Source: Oligoflexales bacterium
GTDB lineage: Bacteria; Bdellovibrionota_B; Oligoflexia; Oligoflexales; Bog-1112
Direction of reading: 5' to 3'
DNA length: 64,000 nucleotides
NCBI GenBank assembly: GCA_045106415.1
Contig: JBGCEP010000027.1
Location: 64,001 to 128,000, forward strand
Positions within the stretch are counted from its first letter, which is position 1. Every line of letters starts with the position of its first letter. The translations under genes were made by a program, and so were the position numbers. The notes beneath the pieces are model-generated. The model saw nothing but the letters and a program-made list of their open reading frames with translations, was not told the origin of the DNA and did not search any database. This document shows, piece after piece, positions 10,473 through 57,457 of this stretch.

Positions 10473-10500
10473 GAATGACGTGGAACTCGAAAGGCATAGA

Positions 10501-12687
10501 ATGAGACTTCGACGTTATAACAGCATAGCTATATGGCTCTTCTTAATTGCTATTTCTTCCAGCCGTTTGTTTGGTGCTGGAACAAAGCAAGAAGATCAGC
10601 AAATTCGACAAGAAAGTATTGCTGAAATCACAAAAACAGTCACACCACTCCTACGAAAGTATTGTAGCGATGCATGCCAACTCATTCGAGTCGATGTTGC
10701 AATCGACCACGCTCTACAAGAATCAAACGAACTTGGATTTGAAGGAGAGCAATCTCCTGAGAGTCTAGCTTATGTTGAGAAGGTTACTGTTTCCATTCAG
10801 GTAGACAGTAGAGTCACAAATTCTAACAGAGAAAGACTCGGAAAAATTCTCAATCATCACATAGAAAGCACAGGCCTACCAGCTGAAGTCAGCTGGGTTC
10901 AAATCGAACTTCCGCAAATTGGAGAATCTGCCGAGCTTGCTCAGAAACTCATCAATAAACTCCGCGCTCGAATCTCACGCTCAGTAGAAAACGTCATACA
11001 AAGCTACTGCCCTGAACAGTGCCTCTTATCAAATGTTGATGTTGATGGCCACCTTATTTCGCCAGACGAGGCCTCTGGCTTGAACCCCAGGGAAGTGATT
11101 CGCTCATCCTCAGGAAGAGGGTTTCTAAAAATTGACAGATCCAATGTTCTTATTACTATGGATAGGACACTCGGTGGAGCTGGGCGAGAACGGATTTTAA
11201 ACCTCATACAAGCTCGGACTCGATTTGTAAGCAATCTAGAAGTTGATACAAACATAACAGACTTTCCAGAGTCTCACACTGCTCGTCAAGAACGTATCAA
11301 CTCAGAAGCTGATGACCCTTATGGGCTGGAAAAACTTCGACGAGTTCTTACTTTATTCAGAGACCTTGCGGGCACGCGAGAAATTATTTCTTCTGCTAGC
11401 CATGAAAGTGAAACTGAATCCTGGATGGCTTGGCTGGGACTTCTCAGCGCAATAGCCTTAATTGGCGGCATTACCTACCAGCTCAACAATGCGAAACGTG
11501 ACGCTGCTGCGCTACTTGCTGAACCACAGACTGGGAAAAGCGAAACAGAAAACTCAGAAGTCGGTGATGAAATCCGCAAAGAGCTCAACCTAAGAATAAG
11601 AAACCAAGAAGTTCGAAAAGAACTCATAGATCTTTTCACCGAAGCCCCACGAGTTGCAAAAGAAACTTTTTCAAGGCTTCTGCAAGAAGATGGGGTGGAA
11701 GAGACTGCAAAATATGTCCACATCTTTGGAAAAATGGTCATTATGGACCTCTTGAACGATCCGAACCTACAAAGAGATCTTTATGAATTAACCGAGTATT
11801 ATCACAAATCCGATTTCGTTTTTACACTTGAAGAAGAGTGGAAGCTCTTGTCCTCGTTAAAAACACGAGTCACAGCTAGTGAAATACGTGTTCTCGCAAA
11901 AAACACAATGGATCAATTTGAATTTTTAAATCGATTAGATGCAAGTCAAATTTACAACCTTGTCGCGGATGAAAAACCGCAAGTCCAAGGTATCGTACTC
12001 ACACAAGTCGACCATAAACAACGCCGAACCGTATTCGACATGTTTAAAGGTGATGAAAAAGTTGCTCTTATGAAAGAGCTCTGTCGAGCAGATGCGATCC
12101 CTAAAGAATACCTTCAGAATGTCGCAAAAGCTCTTGGCCGAAAAGTCTTATCCAAACCAGAATTCGACACACAAAACTTAAGATCGAGTGACGTCTTACT
12201 AGATCTACTTGAAAAAGCATCTTTAAAAGAACAACGAGCCCTGATGACCAATCTCACTGAAACAAATCCTGATGCCGCACGAGCGATCAAATTAAAACTT
12301 GTTACCATCGAGATGTTACCTTTCTTAAAAGATGGACATCTCCTTGAGGTCATTATGGGCCTTGAACGTGAAGATCTCTTAACCTTCCTCAAAGGCGCAG
12401 ATGAGCACATTCTGGAGCTTCTTCTCTCACACGTACCGCAAGAACTTGCTGACAGCTGGCTAGAAGACTTAGAAAGCATTGCTTCTGTCGACGACAGTAA
12501 ATACCGCCTCGTCGAAATGATGGTCCTTGGGCGAGTCAGAAACCTCGCATCAAATGGCGCATTTAACTTGCTTGATATTAATGAGATGCTGTTCGCCGAA
12601 GCAAATGATAATTCAAATCAAGGCCCTTCACAACAGGGCCCTGATGATATGAATCTCGGCTTGAGTCCTATGAACCTTATTGCCTAA
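10501..12687 (+). CDS. FliF-like (2x RBM3-like, TM, FliF-C) fused to complete FliG-like domains
   Basis: N-terminal signal/TM; two periplasmic repeats (LLRKYCSDAC...VEKVTVSIQVD; VIQSYCPEQC...IDRSNVLITMD); TM WMAWLGLLSAIALIGG; FliG-M FEFL...DEKPQ; FliG-C LKGA...LEDL...VRNLASNG. Confidence 0.75.
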   Translation: MRLRRYNSIAIWLFLIAISSSRLFGAGTKQEDQQIRQESIAEITKTVTPLLRKYCSDACQLIRVDVAIDHALQESNELGFEGEQSPESLAYVEKVTVSIQVDSRVTNSNRERLGKILNHHIESTGLPAEVSWVQIELPQIGESAELAQKLINKLRARISRSVENVIQSYCPEQCLLSNVDVDGHLISPDEASGLNPREVIRSSSGRGFLKIDRSNVLITMDRTLGGAGRERILNLIQARTRFVSNLEVDTNITDFPESHTARQERINSEADDPYGLEKLRRVLTLFRDLAGTREIISSASHESETESWMAWLGLLSAIALIGGITYQLNNAKRDAAALLAEPQTGKSETENSEVGDEIRKELNLRIRNQEVRKELIDLFTEAPRVAKETFSRLLQEDGVEETAKYVHIFGKMVIMDLLNDPNLQRDLYELTEYYHKSDFVFTLEEEWKLLSSLKTRVTASEIRVLAKNTMDQFEFLNRLDASQIYNLVADEKPQVQGIVLTQVDHKQRRTVFDMFKGDEKVALMKELCRADAIPKEYLQNVAKALGRKVLSKPEFDTQNLRSSDVLLDLLEKASLKEQRALMTNLTETNPDAARAIKLKLVTIEMLPFLKDGHLLEVIMGLEREDLLTFLKGADEHILELLLSHVPQELADSWLEDLESIASVDDSKYRLVEMMVLGRVRNLASNGAFNLLDINEMLFAEANDNSNQGPSQQGPDDMNLGLSPMNLIA

Positions 12688-23199: not shown

Positions 23200-24177
23200 A
23201 TGAAACGATTCTTGACTCTTGTATGGATTTTATTTTCAACTTCTTTATTCGCAAAATCCAAACAAGAAAAATACAAACTTGAACAAATCAACACTCTCAT
23301 TCAACCACTCCCTCATCATCAAATTTTTTACCATTGGACTCGGCCAAACAAAGCAAAACGACTTGTTTCGCTTGGCTATCTTTCAATCCCTCGCTTTCAG
23401 GTCACTATGCACGTTGGAACGAAGCTTGATAATTTAACACTCCACGCTGGTCGAGGGATGTATATCTCTGAGCGTTACGACAATTGTTCAAAATATGGGG
23501 ACACCCTCATCGAAGTTCATGCAGTAGCTGGCACGCCTTACCTAGATCTCACACACCCTCAAACAAAAAAAAATATGCAAAGACTAAACATCAAACGCCG
23601 TGATGTCTTTACGCTAAACCCAAATGCACTCATTCGTTTTGACGAGACTCATCAATGGTGGGTCATAAAAACACGTGAAGGAATTTCTTTTGCAAATTTC
23701 CATGAACCTGATGTTTTTCGGCTTTTACGAAGTTATCGAAAATTCGTAAAAAAAGGAGACACCCCCGAAAATTACTCTCAAATACTTCCCATTTTAAGAA
23801 GAAACGTTGTCACCCAACGTGAGGGAATTCGAAAACTCACAGAACAAGAAGCTCAACCCTCTCTTCAACCTTCACCGCCCCAGAGCCTTTACCTTTGGCG
23901 AGCAGACGCTAGTTGTGGCTGGTATACAAAAAACTATCATCTCGTACAAGATGACATCTCTGATGATTTTTGCCGAGATCAACGCCAACCGACATACTCA
24001 TGGCACAAGGGCAATTGTCGCGAAACCGTAAGAGGTTATCCTCAAATCATAATTAAAGAAAGCGTAGACTCAAGACATTGCCCGATAAGATTTAGGCATA
24101 AAGGACGTTGCGCAAAACTTCGTGGAAATGAAATTCGTTATATCAAAGAATCTTATTGCCAAAATGCAGGTCTCTAA
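23200..24177 (+). CDS. Exported protein: putative ADP-ribosyltransferase-like N-domain + Cys-rich C-terminal repeats
   Basis: Signal peptide MKRFLTLVWILFSTSLFA; FYHWT, AGRGMYIS...SKYG; three Cys-paired repeats at the C-terminus. Confidence 0.5.
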   Translation: MKRFLTLVWILFSTSLFAKSKQEKYKLEQINTLIQPLPHHQIFYHWTRPNKAKRLVSLGYLSIPRFQVTMHVGTKLDNLTLHAGRGMYISERYDNCSKYGDTLIEVHAVAGTPYLDLTHPQTKKNMQRLNIKRRDVFTLNPNALIRFDETHQWWVIKTREGISFANFHEPDVFRLLRSYRKFVKKGDTPENYSQILPILRRNVVTQREGIRKLTEQEAQPSLQPSPPQSLYLWRADASCGWYTKNYHLVQDDISDDFCRDQRQPTYSWHKGNCRETVRGYPQIIIKESVDSRHCPIRFRHKGRCAKLRGNEIRYIKESYCQNAGL

Positions 24178-24191
24178 AAAAAGGCACAATT

Positions 24192-25403
24192 ATGAAATAC
24201 TTTTTTTCACTACTCACTTCCATCATTGCTCATAATTCATTCTCCTGCCCAGAAGTTTTTGAAAAATGGCCATTGGAGTGTGAGATTCACGACCGCTACC
24301 AAGCCGTAAAAGAAAACTTTGACCACGAGTTTGATTTAGACGTTAGGTTTCTCACTGAATATAGAACAATTCGCCTCATTCCAAGAGCTCTTATAAGCCA
24401 AGTGAAACCGACCTCCGTCCAAAATCCATGGGATTATTATCAAGATCCTCTCTCTTGGCAGTATTGGGAAAAAGGTTCACATTTTATGGAGTCACTCGCG
24501 ACAGAATTGTCGAATTCAAATCAAAACTTCAAACTGATGCATCTTCAACACCTTCATAAAAAGCTCATTGATAAAAAAAGAATAATCATGGGAAAGAGCC
24601 GATACATCCCAGGAGCCAAGCCAGGAAAACTTCGCGCTTGGCACAGTATTTTCCCTAGTGTCATCGCTTTTGCACGAGATCAATTTGATAGCCCACTATC
24701 ACCAAAACAATACGCATATCTCAATAACTATGATATCAAAGATCAAAATGACCGATCTGTTCTTCGTTTACGCTCAGGACTCAGCACTCAAGAAGGACAA
24801 CTCGCTGTTCTCTATTATTTAGAAGCTCATCGCATAGAAGGTGTGCTCCGTCATAAAATTAAAGAATTTAATAAATCATGGCGTGCTTTAAAAGCCAACG
24901 ATACGACACAAAATATTTCACCCATTGAACTCGCAGCGACTTTTCAAAAAACTCTTATTTCTATACATCCATTCCATGAGGGGAACGGCCGCGTCACACG
25001 TTTAGTTGAAGATACAATCTTGACCTCTTTCGGGCTCCCTTATGTACCAAGCGGTGACCTCACTGATGATTTACTCGATCCTATCGAACAATACGCAGCA
25101 AAAACACGTACAGCTCTCCTTAATCTCGTCCAATCCTTAGAAAACTGCCTTAAGCATCACCGAAGATCAAAACTTACACAACAACCCGTCCCACCCATGT
25201 GTAGAACACTTTATCACTCGAATCCTTTTGATACAGCTCAGGAACAAAAAGAAAGGCGCCTTATGCGCCTACGTGTCTTAAAAGCTCTACCTAAAGATCA
25301 AGAACATCCTCTTGGGACCACGGGCCAGAAAAAAGAGTCTTGGAAAAATTTTATAATCAAAAAATGGAAATCACAGCCTTCTTTCTCAATTTTAAAAAGT
25401 TAA
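24192..25403 (+). CDS. Fic-domain protein with signal-peptide-like N-terminus
   Basis: IHPFHEGNGRVTR canonical Fic motif; start moved to ATG 24192 (MKYFFSLLTSIIAHNSFS). Confidence 0.85.
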   Translation: MKYFFSLLTSIIAHNSFSCPEVFEKWPLECEIHDRYQAVKENFDHEFDLDVRFLTEYRTIRLIPRALISQVKPTSVQNPWDYYQDPLSWQYWEKGSHFMESLATELSNSNQNFKLMHLQHLHKKLIDKKRIIMGKSRYIPGAKPGKLRAWHSIFPSVIAFARDQFDSPLSPKQYAYLNNYDIKDQNDRSVLRLRSGLSTQEGQLAVLYYLEAHRIEGVLRHKIKEFNKSWRALKANDTTQNISPIELAATFQKTLISIHPFHEGNGRVTRLVEDTILTSFGLPYVPSGDLTDDLLDPIEQYAAKTRTALLNLVQSLENCLKHHRRSKLTQQPVPPMCRTLYHSNPFDTAQEQKERRLMRLRVLKALPKDQEHPLGTTGQKKESWKNFIIKKWKSQPSFSILKS

Positions 25404-43458: not shown

Positions 43459-45174
43459 TTAAGAGTTCAGAAGATTTTGAATATCAGAAATAGTGTCTCC
43501 AATTGAAACCATTTCTTGCTCTAATGATTTACACATCACATCTAAACCATTTGCTTGCTCAGATCCAACCCCTACATCTTTTTGGATACTGCTCACAGCA
43601 TGGTTTACTTCTGTAATACCTCGTGATTGCTCTTCGGTACTTATTGAAATATCTTTTGATTGCTGCAAAAGGATTTCAGCAGACCCTAACACATCACTAA
43701 ATAAAGCCGACGTACGAGAAGCTCTTTGTTGCCCATTCGATACTTTTTCTGCTGTGTTTTTCCTCACTTGCTCAGCAAGTTTAAGGCTCCCTCCGACAAT
43801 GTTAGATATCTCCAGAGCTGCAACACCGCTCATTTGAGCGAGGCTATTGACTTCTTGCGCAACAACTGCAAATCCTCTTCCGTGTTCACCCGCTCTTTCA
43901 GCTTCAACAGAGGCGTTAAAGGACAGAAGTTTTGTTTGAAACACAATATCATCAATAACTTTTGTCTTATCACCGATCTGCCCTATAACATCGGCAAGTT
44001 GTTCAATTTCATCATTTCCTCGCGCGATATCTTCAATTGTCTTTAAAAGCTCTTGCATAGCAGCATCTGAATTCTGCGCCGTAAGCCGCACTTCTTCTGA
44101 TACAGATGTCGATTTTTGTGCTTGAGATGCATTTGATTGAACAGTGCTTTCAACCTCTTGTATAGCAGACGCAGTCTGATTGAGAGCTGAAACTTGATTT
44201 TGAGCAACATTCACAAGATTTCGACTTCTACCGCTTACTTCTGAAGCAATATGATTCAGTTGGGTATAATTTATACTAAGTGCTTTTTCTACTTTTCTTA
44301 GCTTATGGCTAATGACACTTAAAATAATGGATGAATTTAAAATCAAAACAATGACCCCAAATACATTTAAAACCAGAACTAAAAACTCAGACTTTTTCTC
44401 CAGATGAAAGGCCTCCACCCCAGCCATCAACGTGAAGTCTTCAATATCAAGAAGAAGAGACTCAACAACATGATTTAAATGGTCCTCCTCACCCTCTAAA
44501 ACCTCAATTTCATTCAATGTGGGTTCTTGACCTTGATTCAACCTTTCAAAAAGCTGGGAAATATGTGAATCAAATTCATAATGCTCATTTTTTATCGCTT
44601 GAATGCTTTTTTCAACTTCCTGAAATTTCTCTAAACTCTTAGGATAAGCAGCCACCTCTACTCCATGGTGAGCAATCTTAAAAGCTCGATCAAGCGCCAG
44701 CTCCACCTTTTTCGCATAATAAACCACCTTTTCTTCAGCATGATATAATTTTTCACCGCTCTTTTTCAAAGAAAAGAGCATCGCTCTTTCAAACCAAGTG
44801 CTTTGATGCATCTGAGCCACTTCCACTTGTGATATCGCTTTTGTTAAAGCGATATCTTCTTTCACAATTTCTTCAATTTTAACTCCAAGCTTTTTCATGT
44901 AAAGCTCTGTGATAACACCAACAATTGATGATGTTATAATTGTACCCACCACCAACACCATCAAATTAAATTTAAGAGATTTACGACTCAAAATCCTTGA
45001 TATATATTTGCGACACAAAAAAATTAGGATCATGAACGCCGACAGGCCAACCACAAGAGGTATGTTTTCTGTAAAGAGACGATAAAAACCAAATTCTAAT
45101 TTTTGGACCTCTTCAAGGTTCATACTTACTAGCTTCTGCTCCTGCCCATTAACAGCTGCCACCCTGACTCCCAC
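43459..45174 (-). CDS. Methyl-accepting chemotaxis protein
   Basis: TM segments; [30 protein letters not shown] signalling domain. Confidence 0.95.
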
Positions 45175-45511
45175 AAAAAATTAAAACACATCGACCGTAC
45201 TTATCTATATCGGCCATGCTTCACGAGCCATCATCACACTCCTGAATACCATCAAAATAATGCATTGATTTTACTGGGGAAAACATATCATCTGTACTCA
45301 CATTCATCATAAAGCGATCTCTCCGAGCATAAAAGAGATCCGCCTTTCCAATAAAACCAATGATTTCACTTGTTGGTTATGAAAAAAAATTATATACAGT
45401 TTACCTCTGGCGCTTAAAGCTCGACCATATGCTGTGTCGAAAAGCGTCATTTCAGTGAAGTTCAAGACATTAGCCTCGTGGCTATATACAAGCTGGTTGG
45501 AGAATCGGACA

Positions 45512-45679
45512 ATGGCAAAGTCAACAAGAAGAGAAAAAGTAAAATTGGTATCAACAGCAGGAACAGGGTTCTACTACACCTTGAATAAGCTCAAAGGCCA
45601 AGATAAACTTCTACTGAAAAAATACGATCCTAAAGTTCGTAAGCACGTTGAATTCAAAGAGGCTCGACTTACAAAGTAA
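45512..45679 (+). CDS. rpmG: 50S ribosomal protein L33 (Cys-free type)
   Basis: [22 protein letters not shown]...[15 protein letters not shown]. Confidence 0.95.
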
Positions 45680-45713
45680 GCCGTATTTCTTCATAAAAGA
45701 ATTCTCATACATG

Positions 45714-45746
45714 AGAGCCTACAAGATTTCGCACTTGTGGGCTTTC
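45714..45746 (+). terminator. Probable terminator after rpmG
   Basis: AGAGCCTACAAG-loop-CTTGTGGGCTTT. Confidence 0.6.
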
Positions 45747-45830
45747 TGTGTTTAAAAACATCTGAGAGCCATCTTGTTATACACATACAGACAAAGAAAG
45801 CTCACGAACTTCAACGCATCTGAGGTTTTC

Positions 45831-48212
45831 ATGAAATGGCTGCGCTGCGTCATCGTTACGCTTTGTCAAATCACATGCCATTCAGCATATTGCACAAGCG
45901 ACATCCAACTCCTTCCTCACCAACAGAAGGTCTTCGACTATCTCGAGGAATACCCTGAGCTCAAAGGGCTTATTCTTTATCATGCTCTCGGCTCTGGAAA
46001 AACAGTCACATCCCTCTACTACGCAAAACACCAATCCAAAAACATTAAAATCTTAGTTCCCAACTACTTAAAGGCTCAATGGGTCCAAGAAATAAAAAAA
46101 ATCGGCATCGACCCACAAAAAATTGAAATTTACAGCTACAACAAACCTGGCGACACAAGCAACCTTGAAAAAATTGACTTCTCAGAGAGCCTGGTCATTA
46201 TTGATGAAATTCAAAAACTTGTTGAGCGTGTTCGCTATTCATCAAATCCCTCAGATTTAAAGGTGTACTGGAATCTAGGGAAGTCAAAAAAAATACTTCT
46301 CCTCACTGGAACCCCTATCTTCAATGACGCAGCAGATATTGGCTACATAGGGAATCTTATTAAGGGCGGCTCTTTTTTTCCTTTTCATCCTGATGAGTTC
46401 AAAAGAAAGTATATGGAAATCAATCTTGCTCCATCACTTTTCAGAGGTCACCTCACAGAAAGCAAACTCTTCTCTATTGGCCTCCCTATTTATGGCAGCC
46501 TTCTAGCAACATCACTCAGTTCCATCGCTGGGACCAGCTTTGCTGTACCAGCAATTGCTATGCTAAGCAGCTCCGCTTTAAACGTCACAAATCAACAGTT
46601 TCCAATTCAACAAGTTCACTTTCGAAGATTCAACGCTTCTCGATTTTCAGGCTTTGCAAATCGCTATATCTCTTTTTATGAAACAGCCCACAACGACCTA
46701 TCCGACTACCCAAGCAAGACTATCCACAAACGCGAAGTTGAATACACAGCAGCACAAGTTGATTTTTACATGGACTTCATAGACGGGGTTCTCCCACACG
46801 ACAGACTTGAAAGAATCGTCCACGACGAAACTCGGTCATACACAAAAGCAGAACTCAGAGTTCGCAGCGCACAGATTCAGCAAAACATACTCAAGCGTCA
46901 CGACGCAGGTCGCGAAATTGGAAACCTGAGTCTAACAGGCCCAAAAGGGTTCGAGGTTTCAAAAAAGTTTATCGAAGTAGAAAAAATCATTTCTTCTAAA
47001 CCTGGCCAAGTTGCTATTTATTCCTCCTATTACCACAACGGCCTTGTGCTTTTTGCAGATTTCCTAAAATCTAAGGGACACTCATTTGACGTCCTTCATT
47101 CGGACGACACACCTGAAAAAATGAAAGCAATCCTTGACCGATTTCATACAGAAACAAACCGAATTCTGTTGATCCACCCAGATATCACAGAGGGGATATC
47201 ACTCAAAGGTGTCGAACAGTTCCATTTACTTGAACCAGTAAAAAACCTTGCCCTAGAGAAACAAATCATAGGAAGAAGCGTAAGATACCTTTCTCATCAA
47301 CATCTCCCAAAAGAGCGTCGACACGTCGACATTTACGTTTGGTGCTCAACCGTGACATACGAGCGATTTTTCTTATTTCCCACAGACGCTGGCATTGTCC
47401 GTAGAGACCACTGGCTCAAACGATTTCAGGAAGTAAACCCTAATCTATGGAGCACAGGAATCGCTCAATTGGATTTAAAGTACTTTGAAAAAGACTACAC
47501 TCCCGACCATCATGTCGAAAAAAACAAACTCCGCATAGCCACCGACATGCAAGCTTTCCAACAAGCTTGCCGCACATCCTCCCTTGAACACGGGGTGCAA
47601 ACCCCAGAAAACTTCCTCGCCCACAAAAAAGACACCTCCACCCCCCTTTATCAGAGGCCACTTGTCTCCTTTGAGCTGGGCCTTTATCCTCTTTCCTACG
47701 AACTCACTGACACAAAAACAAAAGAAAAGCGTTTTGAGTTCACACAAAGAAGCGACCTTGGCTTCATCAACGAACTCCCCTACTCCTCACATATCAACGT
47801 CGGCTTTGGAATGAGGTTTAGCTCGGGCATGAGCACACCCTACATCAACAACAAAAAAGCCAACAACCTTACAGAAGCTCTAGCCGACATCAGCATCTCT
47901 TTAATGAACCGCTTTCACGTCGAACCTTTTTCAGAGGAAACGTCGTCTTTTTTCTGGAAACAAGAATATGGCATGAGTGTCTTTTGGGCTTCTCCTTTTT
48001 ACGGCTTAAGCCCTAGTTTTCGACAATCTATAGGCTGGGATCAAAGACTTCTCTCTCACCTTAGTATCTCAGCAGAATTGGGGGCTGAGGCACGAGCTTT
48101 CTTCAGAACAACGACTGTTAAAGACGTCACAGACCTGGAGCCTAAAAACTACAACACGATGAAAAGCTTCCAACCTTTCATCGTGCTGAGCATGACATCT
48201 ACCTACTTTTAA
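45831..48212 (+). CDS. SF2 helicase/ATPase (D6/D11-like motifs) with signal-like N-terminus and beta-barrel-like C-terminal domain
   Basis: [48 protein letters not shown] 45831 after GAGG; last ~190 aa amphipathic strands ending TYF. Confidence 0.75.
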
Positions 48213-49606
48213 GGATGAATCATATCCTCTGCTCGCACGTACTTGTCATAATCTTCAGCTGAAAGAAGCCCCGTTTTCACAGCCGCTTCCTTTAAAGTTA
48301 ATCCTTCTTTATACGCTGTCTTTGCAATCACAGCAGCATGATCATAGCCGATTACAGGATTTAACGCGGTAACAAGCATCAATGAACGGTTCAAATTTTC
48401 ACTGATACGCTCTTTATTCGCCTCTAATCCTTCAACACAGTTCTCAGAAAAGCTTTGCGCCGCATCTGCAAGAAGACTCGCAGACTCTAAAAAATTATGA
48501 ATCATGACTGGCTTAAACACGTTCAACTCAAAATGACCTTGACTCCCTGCAATTCCGACCGCTGCATCTTGCCCCATCACATGAACCGCTACCATAGTTA
48601 GAGCCTCACACTGCGTTGGATTCACTTTACCTGGCATAATTGAACTACCGGGCTCATTTGCCGGCAGAATCAATTCTGCCAACCCACTTCTTGGCCCACT
48701 ACCAAGCATACGCACATCATGAGCTATTTTCATCAGAACAACTGCAACTCTTCTCAAGGCACTACTTGCACTCACAACAGCATCATGCCCTGCAAGAGCA
48801 GCAAACTTATTAGGCGCAGTCACAAAAGGCTTCCCTGTCAAAGCAGCCAAATGTCCCGCAACTCTTTCCCCGTATTCTGGATGAGAGTTTAAACCCGTCC
48901 CAACTGCCGTCCCCCCTAAGGCGATTTCATAAAGACCATCACGACTGCGCTTTACTTCTTCACACGCCTGCAGCAATTGATGGTGATAACCAGAGAACTC
49001 TTGCGCCAACGTTAAAGGGGTTGCATCCATCAAATGTGTTCGACCAATTTTCACAATGCCATCAAACCTATACATACAGCCTTTAAGGCTTTTTAGTAAC
49101 AGGTTCAATTTTGGGATTAACTCTTCATCAATACAATCAATCGCCGCCACATGCATAAACGACGGGAAAGTATCATTGGAGGATTGGGATTTGTTAACAT
49201 CATCGTTCGGATGAACAGGATATTTCGAACCCATTTCACCACCTGAGATTTCAATTGCTCGGTTTGAAATCACTTCATTACCATTCATATTTGTTTGAGT
49301 TCCAGACCCAGTCTGCCACACAACTAAAGGAAAATGATCATCTAAACGCCCTGCTATCACTTCATCACAAGCTTGAGAAATCAAAGATTTCTTGTCTTCA
49401 GAAAGCTTACCTAGGTCAAAATTCGTAAGCGCAGCAGCCTTTTTCACAAGCCCAATCGCGCGAATAAAAACACTAGGGAAACGGTGTCCACCAATCTTAA
49501 AGTTTCCTAAAGACCTTTGTGTTTGCGCTCCCCAATAACGATCGGAAGGAACTTGGATTTCACCCATACTATCTATTTCTGTGCGCTCTGACATCTGACA
49601 CCTCAA
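48209..49606 (-). CDS. fumC: Class II fumarate hydratase
   Basis: [32 protein letters not shown]. Confidence 0.98.
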
Positions 49607-49719
49607 TAAAAAAATCTCACAGCAAGATAATATATGAAAATTCTTAGCTTTTCGACATTTTCACTTTATCTCACGAAACAAACTTCCGATAACGCTCAGG
49701 AATTTTAGGAGGTCGCTCT

Positions 49720-50001
49720 ATGCGCATTGTAGCAAATATTCCCATCAGAAGATTTGTACACATGACAATCACCAAAGAGTCATCCATTCATAGCATTATT
49801 GATTCATGGAGCATAGAAAGAGAAAACATCATTAAAGTCATTACCGAACATTTCATCGACATGGGAATCTTTGAGGTGTCCCCTGTCACCGACACTGAGC
49901 AAATTAGAGACTCTATCATTCACGCCCTGCACTACCACCCCGATTTCAAGGCTATGCTCATAAAAATTCATCAATCAAGAACAGCAAACACAAGAAAATA
50001 A
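49720..50001 (+). CDS. Small hypothetical protein
   Basis: AGGAGG RBS; TCCGATAA box at 49685-49692. Confidence 0.6.
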   Translation: MRIVANIPIRRFVHMTITKESSIHSIIDSWSIERENIIKVITEHFIDMGIFEVSPVTDTEQIRDSIIHALHYHPDFKAMLIKIHQSRTANTRK

Positions 50002-50019
50002 GCACCCTCCAGACTGTGA

Positions 50020-50135
50020 TATGGATGAGTTATAGAAACGCAGTATTTCTTAAATTTTTCTCGCGCCTTGATATTAGTAAAATGCCAAGTAATCTTTACT
50101 TGCACACCATTTCATTGCTCAACCTCACTTTTAAA
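50020..50135 (-). pseudogene. IS630-family 3' fragment (inverted relative to the copy at 50800-51973)
   Basis: Reverse complement of 50041-50118 aligns ungapped to 51861-51938 (61/78 identical); reads KITWHFTNIKAREKF. Confidence 0.7.
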
Positions 50136-50139
50136 AATT

Positions 50140-50800
50140 CGCTCCCCTATCATACTGTGAAGAACAATTCGTACATCCCCAAAGTCTTTGGGACAGTTGA
50201 ATGTCATCTCAAGTGAAATACTTCGAGCACAATTTTGTTGGAGGAAAAAAGCAGCCTATAATCATGATCTAATACCTTTTCATCTTCGCTTTGTATTCGA
50301 GTTGTCTTCAAAACCCATATCCGCTATAGACCTTGCCAATCTTGAGTCCTTCATCATACCTTTAACGTGAAGGTCCTCAATAGCAATACAACCACAAACC
50401 TCAACACAAAGACACGTAAGCTTATGGAGAGTGTCTTGGCGTATACGAGCAACACGAACATGATATCTTTGCGCAGTTTCTCTTTGACCTTTTACCTATT
50501 GAAAGAGACTTTTTTGTTGCGACTACAGATACGCTGAAGTCTTTGCATTTTTTTTAATCTGCTCGATACGGCCGAAGAGGCATAAAAAACTCACCACTAG
50601 AGTAGCGTAGCTAAAATCGAAATTCCTAAATCAACACCAGCAACATTCCTTTGGTTTTCAGATTTGTATTTGCATGTCGATTCCAGGTGTTTTTACGCTT
50701 AAGCTTATAAACCACCTTCCTGCAATAAGACTCACTGCTCCAGATTTGATCTCTTTTGATGGAGATTAAAAACTTTGGACCTATCCACAGAAGGCTTTCA
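50140..50800 (-). pseudogene. tnpB: Decayed IS200/IS605-family tnpB remnant
   Basis: Fragments across frames: AGRWFISLSV, NVAGVDLGI (RuvC-I), IAIEDLHVKGMMK...ARSIADMGF (RuvC-II), RQLEYKA, PPTKLCS, CTNC...DRE; frameshifts and stops; boundaries approximate. Confidence 0.8.
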
Positions 50801-51973
50801 TCCGAACTTAATTCCTCTAGATTTTTCTTCTACCCGCCCTTCATGAGTTCGTCCGAGTATTCTCATTCTTTCATCTTGGGGATTTACGCCAGGAAATCGT
50901 AGATTAAAAGAAGCACAACAACCTATTCTCGTTATCAGAAATCGACACATCAGTGGTGAGCTTAAACGGACAGCGCAGGATCAACCGAGGTTCAGATCTC
51001 TGAATAAAACTAAGGAAAAACACAGAGAAAAATTGACCACTCTGACCCGCATTGGTGCTCCGACAGAATATGCAAAATAGAGTTTACTACGACCTGCCGA
51101 CAATGCTACTGAAGTGGGCATTGTTGGTAAGTAGGGTAAAACAAAATCTTATTTACACACTCACATCCACCAAATATCGCTTTAAAAGATGGGCTTATTA
51201 ACTTCTTAAAACTCTTAATACGTAAATAAAATCATCTCATAGGATTATCTCACAACCAATTGGTTTTCATTCTAAAAAAGCACGGTTAAGCCTCACCTGA
51301 AACGACAATTTGCCTCAGCACGATTCAAATTTTGTGTGAAAAATGGAGAACACCCTTGAAATTTATGGCCAGAAATATGACCCAGCATTTCCCGTTATTT
51401 GCTTCAATGAACACCCATATCAACTAACTAAAGATATCGTTACACCAGCAAAAACAGAACCTGTAGAGAGAAAAATGAAGATTATGACTACAAGAGGAAA
51501 ACAGCACATACATTGTTTGAATGACTATTAAGCCGCTCACGTGAAAAACAATCGTCGATGCCACTATGCGGAAAACGAAGGTAGATCATAGCAATTTCAT
51601 GAAAAAAGTTTCTGCCGCCTGCCTGAGTGATAAAAAATCATTTTCTTCAGGATAATCTCAACACTCATAATCCATATTCTTTTTATGAAAACATGCCAGC
51701 GCAAGAGGCTTTGAGCTCACCACTCGCTTTGATACGAAGCACCCACTCAAGCGCGTGAGTTAGCTTAATATGAAAGAAATAGAATGTTCGGCACTTTCAA
51801 ACAATGTCTTGATAGACAAAAATTTAACAAACTTAAAAGTGAAGTCAGACAATAGACTAAGCAACGAAACGACGCACAAATAAAGATTCGTTGACAGTTT
51901 ACTAATACCAAGGCACGAAAAAAATTTGAGAAACACTACAATTATATCACCAGCTAATATGACAGCACACTAG
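50800..51973 (+). mobile_element. Decayed IS630-family element (transposase pseudogene)
   Basis: KMENTLEIYGQKYDPAFPVICFNEHPYQL, QDNLNTH...FYE, degenerate SWLNM region; ends CACACTAG; many stops; left boundary approximate. Confidence 0.8.
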
Positions 51974-52025
51974 CCTCCACAACAAAACTCTGCTATCACA
52001 TGACAGAATATGGAGACACATCATA

Positions 52026-52403
52026 ATGAAAAATCTTTATGAAAAAATCGGAAGCAAAAAACTAGAAGATATTATTCGACACTTTTACGACAACGCATTC
52101 GAAGATGTCATGATAGGATATTTTTTCACTGGAAAAGATAAAGAAAAACTCATCCGCCATCAAATCGAGTTCACAAGCCAGCTTCTTGGGTGCACAGATA
52201 TAAACTATCAAGGCCAGCCTTTACCTCAAGTCCACAATAAACTTGCCGGGCTGAGAAAACCTCATTTTGATCGCAGACATCTCCTCCTCAAAGAGGCTAT
52301 GTCTGCATTTCAACTTCCAAACGAGATCACAGAAGAGTGGCTAACCCTCGAGCGCCGCTTGCTCCCCTTGATCCTCGGCAGACGTACGCCCACGAAACAA
52401 TAA
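52026..52403 (+). CDS. Group I truncated hemoglobin
   Basis: LYEKIG...FY, IGYFF, HQIEF, YQG..L..VH, HFD. Confidence 0.85.
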   Translation: MKNLYEKIGSKKLEDIIRHFYDNAFEDVMIGYFFTGKDKEKLIRHQIEFTSQLLGCTDINYQGQPLPQVHNKLAGLRKPHFDRRHLLLKEAMSAFQLPNEITEEWLTLERRLLPLILGRRTPTKQ

Positions 52404-53732
52404 AGAAACAGGCACGGATTCAAAACCCAATTCACGCCTCAAACCGCGCCACATGTAACGCTGGTAAGACTCACTTAACGCATTTGGAAAGTTACACTTC
52501 ACAACAAAAGTTGGTGGGCTACACCGTACTTGAGTCGCGTAATAAAACTTCATTCGAGCGTGCTTTTGCCTTACCAAGTGAGGGGAGTGCTTCTTTAGAA
52601 GCATCTGCAACGCTTCATTCACACGACTCGTTGGAGCTCTTTTTGCACTTTCTTCCAAGAGGTGAACAACCTGATCCATAATTTTTGGAACACGAAGATT
52701 TTCTTTCGCAGAAACAAACAGCACAGGAAGGTAGTTCAAATCTTTAAACTTACATCGCAAGTTTTCTGTATATTGCTTTGCAGTTGAATGATCTTTCTCA
52801 ATCAAATCCCACTTATTTACCACAACAAGCACTGGCTTAAACTGATGAATAGCCATATTCACAAGCCGCACATCCTGATCAGCCATTCCATCAACAGCAT
52901 CAATCACTGTCACCACGCAATCGGCTCGCTGGATACCACGCAGACTTCGAATCACACTTGCCGACTCAAGCTCATCGTGGATCTTTGTACGTCGACGCAC
53001 ACCAGCCGTATCAACAATGACATATGGTTTTTTATGAAAGAACAAAGTCGAGTCCACTTGATCACGCGTGGTCCCTGCAACAGGGCTCACAACCGAACGC
53101 TCCGTACCAAGCAAGCGATTCAAAATCGACGATTTTCCAACATTAGGCTTCCCTAACAAGGCAATCCGAGGCGCATCAGGGTGGTCGGCCTGGACTTTTA
53201 AAGACGAGATATTTTCTAAACGATCTTGAACCATATAGCGAAGCGTACCAATCCCTCGACTATGCTTTGCACACAGTGGGTGCAACTCTTCTTCCCCAAG
53301 CCCCAAGGCGTGAAATTCCCATAGAGCTCCTTGATGTTCAATACCGTCAATTTTATTGACAACACATATCATCGGGCGACCAGTTTTTTGGACCTCACGA
53401 ACAAGATCATGATCTCGCGGGTGAATACCTTCACGACCATCAAGCATCAGCACCACTAAGTCCGCATCAAGAACAGCGTTCATCGTGTGACGCCACACGA
53501 CTCCCCCCTCAAACGGTTGGAACATATCTTGAGGGCCCTCTAGACCACCTGTATCAACGATCGTAAAACCATCACGACCATCTTTTTCATAACGAGCGAC
53601 ACCGTACAGGCAGTCTCTCGTGACTCCCGGCTGATCTCGAATAATAGATTGATTCTGCCCTGTTAAACGATTAAATAACGTCGATTTTCCAACGTTGGGT
53701 CTGCCCACAAGAGCTACAATACCACGGATCAT
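52341..53732 (-). CDS. der: Ribosome biogenesis GTPase Der
   Basis: Two G-domains (GRPNVGKS/DTGG/NKID; GKPNVGKS/DTAG/NKWD) and KH-like YYATQ...PPTF. Confidence 0.97.
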   Translation of the reverse strand: MIRGIVALVGRPNVGKSTLFNRLTGQNQSIIRDQPGVTRDCLYGVARYEKDGRDGFTIVDTGGLEGPQDMFQPFEGGVVWRHTMNAVLDADLVVLMLDGREGIHPRDHDLVREVQKTGRPMICVVNKIDGIEHQGALWEFHALGLGEEELHPLCAKHSRGIGTLRYMVQDRLENISSLKVQADHPDAPRIALLGKPNVGKSSILNRLLGTERSVVSPVAGTTRDQVDSTLFFHKKPYVIVDTAGVRRRTKIHDELESASVIRSLRGIQRADCVVTVIDAVDGMADQDVRLVNMAIHQFKPVLVVVNKWDLIEKDHSTAKQYTENLRCKFKDLNYLPVLFVSAKENLRVPKIMDQVVHLLEESAKRAPTSRVNEALQMLLKKHSPHLVRQKHARMKFYYATQVRCSPPTFVVKCNFPNALSESYQRYMWRGLRRELGFESVPVSLLFRGRTSAEDQGEQAALEG

Positions 53733-56220: not shown

Positions 56221-56619
56221 ATGCCTGATACTAAAATCATTTGGAAGCGCCCTGACGGTTTTCATGGGGCCAGCCCTGAAGATTACAGAACATTTGAACT
56301 TAATAACGGCACAAAACTCTGGCTGCATCGCTCTGACAAAGAAAACTACCCTTTCCGCATCGCAGGTGGTTGGCAAGATGAAGTCTCTAGCAAACGCATT
56401 AATACTCTACTGAACCTTTTAGGAGCAGAAAAATCAGATTGGAAAAACACTCTCAACTCAGATTATCAGCAATCAGGCCTGGAACATTTTTCTGAATACA
56501 TTGAGAGCACCCTCAAGTGGATTGATTCCTTGCAACAAAAACTCAAAGGGGACACTTGGGAGCAAGACATTATGGCTTCAGCTCTTACAGAGGTTTGCAA
56601 CTCCCTCAAAGAACTCTAG
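56221..56619 (+). CDS. Hypothetical protein
   Basis: ATG 56221 after GGGAG RBS. Confidence 0.6.
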   Translation: MPDTKIIWKRPDGFHGASPEDYRTFELNNGTKLWLHRSDKENYPFRIAGGWQDEVSSKRINTLLNLLGAEKSDWKNTLNSDYQQSGLEHFSEYIESTLKWIDSLQQKLKGDTWEQDIMASALTEVCNSLKEL

Positions 56620-57457
56620 CTTTTCCCTCTAAGGTCACAGTTGCATGACCCTCAAGACTTAAAGGGTCGTGATCTTTTTGCAGTTGTGATTTCAGCCAAC
56701 TCCACCTTTTATTCGCGACCTGTAAATCAAAGTCGTTCACAAGTGGGTGAGCACCTGTATATAAGAACAGTGAACAATTCCAATTATGATGTGAACAAAA
56801 ATCATGCATTTTATCTAAATTTCTGACTTCATCATCAACAAATACAAGGTGCCTTAGTGGGTATTCCATACTTTTTAACACAGCGTCAAGAGCCATTCCC
56901 TTATGCTGACCAGAGGTATAAATCACCCCTTCGTCCAGAGAGATCGCTCGAACCAGATCAGGGTGCTTCAAAATTCTTTCTTTTTGTTCTTCAAATCGAT
57001 CAGCGAACCGCATCTGATTATCCCTTAAGTGCAAATGCGTTGCATGAGAGAGCTCAAGCCCTCGTGCGGTAAGGCCTATAATATCAACATTTTTTTCTCT
57101 TAAAGCCTCAAGAAAACGAGCCGTATGAGGTTCCGCAGGTTGAAACTTCACCAAGTTATAAACAGCTAAAAGGTCCACCACTGCCATTCGAAAAGCTGTA
57201 TGCGAGTTATGACCCTCTTTCAAGTAATGTTCAATCCTTGTGTAAGACCACTGCGGCATGCCAATTTGGTGATCAGGAACCAGCAGCGTTAAATCAACAT
57301 CGAAAGCCACGAGACTTTCATCTTTTATTGCACTTTGAACATCTTGAATTTTATCTATTTTTTGGTACATCACACTTTTTTCCTGTTTCATTTCCGTGCA
57401 CGAAGCCTCGAAAAACATAAGACTAATTATTCCTAATAACACAGGCCAATTCACCAC
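56606..57457 (-). CDS. HAD-superfamily protein (DUF2608-like), exported
   Basis: FDVDLTL, GLTAR, HKG, FVDD...N. Confidence 0.75.
   Translation of the reverse strand: MVNWPVLLGIISLMFFEASCTEMKQEKSVMYQKIDKIQDVQSAIKDESLVAFDVDLTLLVPDHQIGMPQWSYTRIEHYLKEGHNSHTAFRMAVVDLLAVYNLVKFQPAEPHTARFLEALREKNVDIIGLTARGLELSHATHLHLRDNQMRFADRFEEQKERILKHPDLVRAISLDEGVIYTSGQHKGMALDAVLKSMEYPLRHLVFVDDEVRNLDKMHDFCSHHNWNCSLFLYTGAHPLVNDFDLQVANKRWSWLKSQLQKDHDPLSLEGHATVTLEGKARVL

Follow-up and report, generated by a model that had tools for sequence, protein, structure and literature searches.

A putative exported helicase of the D6/D11 lineage fused to an outer-membrane-barrel-like domain in an Oligoflexales bacterium

What would a helicase be doing behind a signal-like peptide and in front of a domain that resembles an outer-membrane barrel? 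This question is raised by a gene in a 64,000-nucleotide stretch of an Oligoflexales bacterium genome (assembly GCA_045106415.1, contig JBGCEP010000027.1, positions 64,001 to 128,000 of the forward strand; hereafter the window, numbered from its first letter). The gene lies on the plus strand, as do all of its features given below, and forms one uninterrupted open reading frame (ORF) of 793 codons plus stop (45831..48212; ATG at 45831, stop at 48210–48212). A first-pass annotation, made from the sequence alone, had already described this uninterrupted frame and had read it as a virus-derived ATPase with a full motif set of helicase superfamily 2 (SF2), fused to an outer-membrane barrel and either displayed at the surface or delivered in the manner of an autotransporter; all sequence strings that it quoted could be located in the translation. 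Here, we evaluated the kinship of the helicase, the nature and history of its C-terminal domain, and the cellular location that these would imply. On balance, we lean towards an exported ATPase of the D6/D11 type whose fused OmpA-like barrel would anchor it in the outer membrane; a role in nucleic acid handling at the envelope is a more doubtful suggestion.

Motifs and kinship of the helicase core

By its sequence, the window protein contains an intact ATPase core of the SF2/SNF2 type, for which catalysis can be predicted. Three Pfam families matched above their cut-offs, i.e., Helicase_C (39.3 bits, cut-off 23.5), SNF2-rel_dom (32, cut-off 24.9), and ResIII (26.8, cut-off 22.5). The first RecA-like lobe (residues 25–185, 45903..46385) corresponds to the SNF2-rel_dom/ResIII matches, includes the string LLPHQQ and invariant alignment columns, and carries the Walker A motif GSGKT (residues 54–58, 45990–46004), motif II DEIQ (residues 125–128, 46203–46214), and motif III TGTP (residues 159–162, 46305–46316). 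The second lobe (residues 379–502, 46965..47336; Helicase_C at 379–486) includes motif IV (47010–47030), motif V TEGISL (residues 453–458, 47187–47204), and the motif VI region QIIGRSVRY (residues 478–486, 47262–47288), and ends with a 12-residue stretch (residues 491–502, 47301–47336). The helicase module is completed by a conserved tail (residues 503–588, 47337..47594) with the alignment pattern ...TPD...S-L/I-E. The full SF2 motif set announced by the first-pass annotation is thus borne out, with motifs I, II, III, V, and VI distributed over two RecA-like lobes. Since the Walker A motif, the DE of motif II, the T/P of motif III, the TEG of motif V, and the Q/R/R of motif VI were invariant in 26/26 aligned members, the ATPase is under selection. 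Within the same alignment, motif II read DE-x-Q in all 10 fused rows of ~790 amino acids (9 distinct proteins, as P0004 is present in two rows), whereas each of the 16 members that are unfused or remote had DE-x-H.

Next, we asked to which helicases this core is related. When an alignment profile was compared to all PDB sequences, vaccinia NPH-I (D11; 6rfl chain Y) came first with an E-value of 5.6e-29 over both lobes, followed by the small subunit of VETF (D6; 7amv chain W) with 4.1e-11 over lobe 1, and then by Rad54 (2.8e-10) and other SNF2 enzymes. At the protein level, 8000 candidates were scored, of which 76 qualified as relatives at E ≤ 1e-3. At least 520 relatives were found in IMG/VR, many of them on contigs named GVMAG; a phage collection of 50,697 records yielded just 2 weak matches, and a plasmid collection yielded none. 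In the ESM Atlas, residues 1–594 fell next to viral clusters in 10/10 cases by features and 9/10 by structure.

Phylogenies of the helicase core were obtained at two levels of care. Quick trees were computed from MAFFT alignments of 154 sequences, reduced to 98 by a k-mer redundancy filter, leaving out two fragments (P0031, P0061) and the weakest matches (P0076, P0077), with two SNF2 proteins from the window's own genome as outgroup. A more careful tree was built from 45 hand-picked rows and 437 columns under LG+C20+F+G4 with 1000 ultrafast bootstraps; its supports are given below as bootstrap/SH-aLRT (Shimodaira–Hasegawa-like approximate likelihood ratio test). Both approaches gave the same topology. 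The bacterial family formed a single clade (99 SH-aLRT in the quick tree; 100/98 in the careful tree), next to a virus-like sister group of five proteins (L034, L069, P0062, P0070, P0073; 98/95), with the two joined at 100/100, and the main clade of nucleocytoplasmic large DNA viruses (NCLDV), including proteins bearing NPHI_C, was recovered at 100/99. Two of the five sister proteins, P0073 and L069, have long branches, and the composition of several rows in this tree is odd. In the trees, the bacterial family grouped with NCLDV helicases and apart from the SNF2 proteins of the window's own genome.

Given the PDB ranking, the trees, and the Atlas neighbors, the "giant-virus-style" reading of the first-pass annotation holds, and we assign the helicase to the D6/D11 (NPH-I/VETF-S) lineage of NCLDV and not to ordinary bacterial SNF2 enzymes. 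The stronger wording "virus-derived" does not follow: the bacterial proteins form a sister group to the virus-like clade and are not nested within it, so that transfer may have gone in either direction. In Yutin and Koonin (2012, PMC3493329), D6/D11 homologues are treated as a monophyletic NCLDV family. The proteins described here would extend this same lineage to bacterial holders in which the helicase is paired with a barrel and export is predicted.

The likeness to NPH-I covers both RecA-like lobes (lobe 1 aligned to NPH-I residues 25–204, lobe 2 to residues 360–502), including the motif VI region and the "H..P.ERR.V" stretch that comes after it. In the cytoplasm, NPH-I acts together with the viral RNA polymerase. 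It lacks the signal peptide, the hydrophobic insert, and the barrel that mark the window protein, and carries instead an NPHI_C domain (PF08469), for which the window protein had no match at E ≤ 1 although one remote relative (P0065) does carry it. Closer at hand are the giant-virus helicases of the L034 type (P0062, P0226–P0231), which belong to the sister clade and share the hydrophobic insert at the same place (19-residue mean of 2.1–2.6) but have no N-terminal signal, no barrel gene, and eukaryote-like neighbors. Specifically, the L034 contig encodes RING, UCH, Xlink, and WLM proteins, and the L069 contig encodes a patatin and a D5-type DUF5906 protein, i.e., eukaryote-like or NCLDV-like neighbors. 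A reverse search with the L034 protein returned six close relatives, followed by members of the bacterial family.

The C-terminal domain and its separate partner

The remaining C-terminal domain (residues 602–793, 47634..48209) ends in STYF and, taken alone, matched no Pfam family and no shorter homologue by word search. A clue to its nature came from relatives that lack it. Helicases of ~600 amino acids end at the position equivalent to window residue ~590, and beside them, either divergently upstream or directly downstream, lies a gene for a protein of 210–270 amino acids with its own signal peptide and the ending ...K-T-T-Y/F-L/F. Profile alignment (hhalign) linked the window-type C-terminal domain to these neighbor proteins at 98.7% (E 3.9e-16, 189 columns) and to a second neighbor group at 92.7% (4e-7), the two neighbor groups being linked to each other at 97.8% (8e-13). 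By a hidden Markov model (HMM) of the barrel family, which scored 168 bits on the window domain, 22 of the 28 distinct loci with a helicase had a partner, fused in 6 and adjacent in 16 (one of these a weak match at 1e-5). Among the six loci without partner, four were cut by a contig end or were gene fragments, while L007 and L029 lacked it despite ≥1.3 kb on both sides. The model had no match in 80 viral loci, and its matches in the window's own genome were limited to the two fused genes. Beyond the barrel, no conserved neighbors were found across loci.

The barrel family is itself tied to helicases. Among 1.84 billion representative sequences, its profile retrieved 184 proteins (74 at 1e-10), and all four of the longer ones that carried another Pfam family carried Helicase_C. 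Because the barrel is mostly encoded by a separate, adjacent gene with its own signal peptide, helicase and barrel seem to constitute a dedicated two-part module, of which the window gene is a fused version: a helicase joined to its predicted outer-membrane partner.

Several lines of evidence suggest that this ~190-residue domain is a small outer-membrane-barrel-like domain, as the first-pass annotation had proposed from its strand pattern and terminal Phe (...MTSTYF). The Atlas model of residues 602–792 aligned to clusters of small barrels of the OMP_b-brl type with template modeling (TM) scores of 0.64–0.77. Windows of alternating hydrophobicity covered 46% of the columns compared to 20 ± 8% after shuffling, a level reached in 0/500 shuffles, and the terminal residue was aromatic in 57 of the 60 top stand-alone members. 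The stand-alone members also gave 10 sub-threshold matches to OMP_b-brl, DUF2715, or OmpA_like, and the machinery needed for barrel insertion and lipoprotein processing is represented in the genome by Omp85/BamA and LspA. The domain thus resembles OmpA-type barrels (PF13505, clan MBB) in its Atlas alignment, alternation, and terminal aromatic residue. It differs from them in that neither the window domain nor its relatives exceeded the cut-off of PF13505 (OMP_b-brl), for which matches were sub-threshold only, and in that the partner family is small, with the helicase as the sole fusion partner found. Fold and orientation are predictions from these comparisons.

Could the fusion be an artefact of assembly, a frameshift, or a gene in decay? 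The genome is a metagenome-assembled genome (MAG) in 89 contigs, and one related genome carries a helicase with an in-frame TGA, both of which would be compatible with this. Against it, 45700–48300 is covered in run X1 by a single Logan contig with 1 substitution and no indel, a continuity that is not independent evidence insofar as X1 may be the source sample; run X2 of the same study gave only fragments, which leave 47527–47613 unbridged. The same architecture is also found elsewhere: eight relatives of 790–809 amino acids cover 97–100% of the query, one of them (P0004) being a paralogue with 46% identity that the window's genome carries on a different contig, and the other seven coming from other assemblies. 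With the catalytic motifs invariant as well, we give almost no credence to an artefact or a decaying gene. In the quick tree, the window-type fused proteins formed one monophyletic clade (100) within the unfused forms, and the fused loci L023, L024, and L027, being placed outside this clade, seem to represent independent fusions.

Further variations on this arrangement were seen. One gammaproteobacterial MAG contains four helicase loci (L024, L026, L027, L031), two fused and two unfused with the barrel downstream, which suggests repeated duplication and fusion. At L007 (G009:C51), an in-frame TGA lies inside the helicase and no barrel gene was found within 1.4 kb; this may be a decaying copy.

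Export signal, ATP supply, and likely location

The signal-like peptide reported by the first-pass annotation is present at residues 1–21 (45831..45893), where MKWLR is followed by a hydrophobic stretch with Cys residues, and appears to be a family trait. In nearly all bacterial members, a short N-terminus is basic and then hydrophobic directly before the first helicase motif, a placement conserved across the family, and often continues with Ala-x-Ala or a lipobox-like Cys. Scored with crude, home-made rules, 54/59 (lax) or 48/59 (strict) bacterial family members had signal-like N-termini, 16–18 of them with a lipobox-like Cys, compared to 0/16 remote or viral relatives; the six L034-type viral proteins had no hydrophobic N-terminus at all. 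Of the five that failed the lax rule, four have short N-termini without hydrophobic stretch, possibly from miscalled starts, while the fifth, P0034, is still signal-like.

A second hydrophobic segment, also noticed in the first-pass annotation, lies between the lobes (residues 213–245, 46467..46565) and is conserved across the family: all members have an insert of ~40 residues, rich in Gly/Ser/Pro and hydrophobic, with a median 19-residue Kyte–Doolittle mean of 1.99 (range 1.25–2.43; 1.51 for the window protein), which may form a membrane hairpin. The virus-like sister clade shares this insert (1.8–2.6), so that it is older than the bacterial signal, while the main NCLDV clade is without it (at most about 1.5).

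The holders of this helicase provide a further context. All are MAGs, labeled as Oligoflexales, Oligoflexia, Bdellovibrionia, Pseudobdellovibrionaceae, "Myxococcales", and Rickettsiales, together with one gammaproteobacterial MAG. Within the window's phylum, the gene was restricted to its own family (7/15 genomes plus that of the window, compared to 0/115 others at E ≤ 1e-30). Elsewhere in the window's genome, three full-length genes of the ATP/ADP-translocase (TLC) family were identified (G000:C83:9695–11140, C10:71538–73013, and C10:35617–37059). TLC genes were found in 15/15 genomes of the same GTDB family (2–9 matches each); among other genomes of the order, 7/25 had weak partial TLC matches only. 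The genome of the window is 93.8% complete, and neither PurH nor PyrF was found in it by searches that detected them in 12/14 and 14/14 control genomes, respectively. Taken together, this family looks like a group of nucleotide parasites that retain flagella and chemotaxis genes, and the window organism appears to be host- or prey-dependent. Outside the family, 9/14 holder genomes had TLC, one of the nine partial (G136, the same genome as G001, was excluded from this count).

How might these parts work together? A Sec-type signal would direct the helicase out of the cytoplasm, and the β-barrel assembly machinery (BAM) would insert the C-terminal barrel into the outer membrane, to which the helicase would then be tethered. 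If the barrel is arranged like those with 8 strands, its two ends would face the periplasm, which would place the motor beneath the outer membrane, with the conserved hydrophobic insert as a possible second membrane contact. ATP from the cytoplasm of a host or prey cell could reach the periplasm through porins, as would fit the gene set of a nucleotide parasite, or could be delivered there by the cell's own TLC carriers. It is possible, and we propose it tentatively, that the family represents a periplasmic SNF2 motor on a dedicated barrel, running on ATP supplied by host, prey, or TLC, and passed between these bacteria and giant viruses of the same eukaryotic hosts. As to function, we put forward as the most likely role, yet a rather doubtful one, that of an ATP-driven translocase or remodeler of nucleic acids at the envelope, with which a nucleotide-auxotrophic bacterium dependent on host or prey would grip foreign DNA or RNA for scavenging.

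A number of observations weigh against an exported, barrel-tethered helicase. The periplasm is regarded as ATP-free, and an exported ATPase would thus need an unusual ATP source; five of the 14 holder genomes outside the family (G141–G145) had no TLC match, which excludes TLC as a requirement for all holders. Applied to 1233 long ORFs from the window's genome, the signal rules also flagged 45% (lax) or 25.5% (strict), and the hydrophobic insert could be a stop-transfer segment, which would alter the topology. On the side of the barrel, 0/61 stand-alone members passed a Pfam cut-off, the family had no sequence relative in PDB, the Atlas model was of moderate quality only (predicted TM score of 0.51, predicted local distance difference test of 0.65), and the number of about eight strands is one that the hydrophobicity pattern suggests. 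Finally, no substrate, nuclease, or uptake gene was found conserved beside the pair.

Several alternative explanations draw on the same data. An uncleaved N-terminal anchor and the hairpin insert could hold the helicase on the cytoplasmic side of a membrane, the C-terminus then not being an outer-membrane barrel. This would make ATP supply unproblematic, and since the viral sister clade has the insert without a signal, a cytoplasm-facing membrane form does exist in the wider family, the viral relatives themselves being likely of this membrane-anchored kind. For the bacterial proteins, we regard it as improbable: their short hydrophobic regions are followed by a lipobox Cys or sites resembling Ala-x-Ala, a signal peptide and a terminal aromatic residue are also present in the separate partner protein, the Atlas fold matches outer-membrane barrels, and the barrel seems to have been joined independently in L023 and L024/L027, outside the window's clade. 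The display or release suggested in the first-pass annotation, in which the barrel would carry the helicase to the surface to act on host or prey nucleic acids, e.g., as an effector of the nucleomodulin type, is unlikely for other reasons. Its attraction lies in the layout, as classical autotransporters (type Va) have the same order of signal peptide, N-terminal passenger, and C-terminal barrel ending in Phe, and in the setting, as the organism seems host- or prey-dependent, ATP and nucleic acids are abundant outside, and lipoprotein forms might be surface-exposed too. However, the C-terminal domain had no match to PF03797, the autotransporter domain of about 270 amino acids (250–300), and its ~190 amino acids are in the range of OMP_b-brl-type barrels (178–220), i.e., too small for a 12-strand pore and linker helix. 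Moreover, the barrel is separate, with its own signal peptide, in 16/22 partnered loci, which is incompatible with the classical mechanism, and autotransporter-like display is therefore not supported.

The pair might also be a conflict system of the envelope, with a tethered motor that acts in the periplasm to intercept or expel the DNA of phages or other foreign DNA, or one that counters co-infecting giant viruses. A patchy distribution (7/15 genomes of the family), multi-copy genomes (2 loci each in G000 and G001, 4 in the Glo_16 MAG), the lack of a fixed chromosomal neighborhood apart from the barrel, and weak partial matches to the SNF2 proteins of the DISARM, Dpd, Zorya, and Pbe systems would be in line with such a role. 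These matches, however, reached 13–41 bits compared to NCBIfam cut-offs of 500–950 and were confined to lobe 1, no nuclease, methylase, or other defense partner was conserved nearby, and the barrel had no PADLOC match, making this explanation quite improbable. In the NCBIfam/PADLOC comparison, lobe 1 gave weak matches, well under the NCBIfam cut-offs, to DpdE, DrmD, HsdR, PbeA, and ZorD; an identity with DrmD, DpdE, ZorD, or PbeA was discarded as their matches, at 17–41 bits, were not full-length.

An exported helicase tethered by an outer-membrane barrel would be unusual. No helicase termed periplasmic, secreted, exported, or extracellular was found by exact phrase in about 8.4 million full texts, and nothing pertinent to an exported helicase appeared in the parts of the related literature that our searches reached; within the same limits, no described precedent was found, in agreement with the first-pass annotation. 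The barrel partner, its fusion, and the association of this helicase family with TLC and auxotrophy appear new. If the proposed periplasmic motor is real, no other motor of the helicase type would be known to operate beyond the cytoplasm of a bacterium, and it would represent a new kind of envelope machine that handles nucleic acids of foreign origin. Should the predicted location hold, it would challenge the rule that the periplasm is without ATP-driven machines, would tie the question of periplasmic ATP to nucleotide parasitism via TLC carriers, and would provide a clear case of genes shared between giant viruses and bacteria, possibly within the same hosts. Because the pair is compact, i.e., two genes or one, export, binding, and ATPase activity would be directly testable in E. 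coli.

Chromosomal setting and further observations in the window

The start of the gene is preceded, 5 nt before the ATG, by a Shine–Dalgarno-like GAGG (45822..45825); a longer frame from a TTG at 45774 is possible, without a comparable ribosome site. Upstream lies a small ORF that we take to resemble ribosomal protein L33, followed by a hairpin and T-run, and downstream, on the minus strand, is fumC, identified by Lyase_1 and FumaraseC_C matches and named as one flank by the first-pass annotation. The surrounding genes are those of an ordinary chromosome (cysS, greA, tyrS, tig, clpPX, lon, der, rnc, lipA, fumC). GC content showed no island in the window. No tRNA was found in the 64 kb, no Rfam family was found in 45000–53000, and no RNA dataset listing the helicase gene was found.

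Other genes of the window include one for a 735-amino acid protein (10480–12684, plus strand) in which the long N-terminal part had no family match and the last ~250 residues match the middle and C-terminal domains of FliG. A Fic-domain protein (24156–25400, plus strand) and a DUF2608 protein (56609–57457, minus strand) belong to families common in host-associated bacteria. A 269-amino acid protein (38972–39778, minus strand) has two matches to the WRKY19 zinc finger (PF24906, E 2.2e-19), a domain that is presumably of plant type. Past fumC, two inverted-repeat arms of 106 nt, 74% complementary (50014–50119 and 51860–51965), flank a 1.7-kb stretch poor in ORFs; a copy of the arm at 82% is present on contig C28, and the arrangement may have been left behind by a small mobile element.

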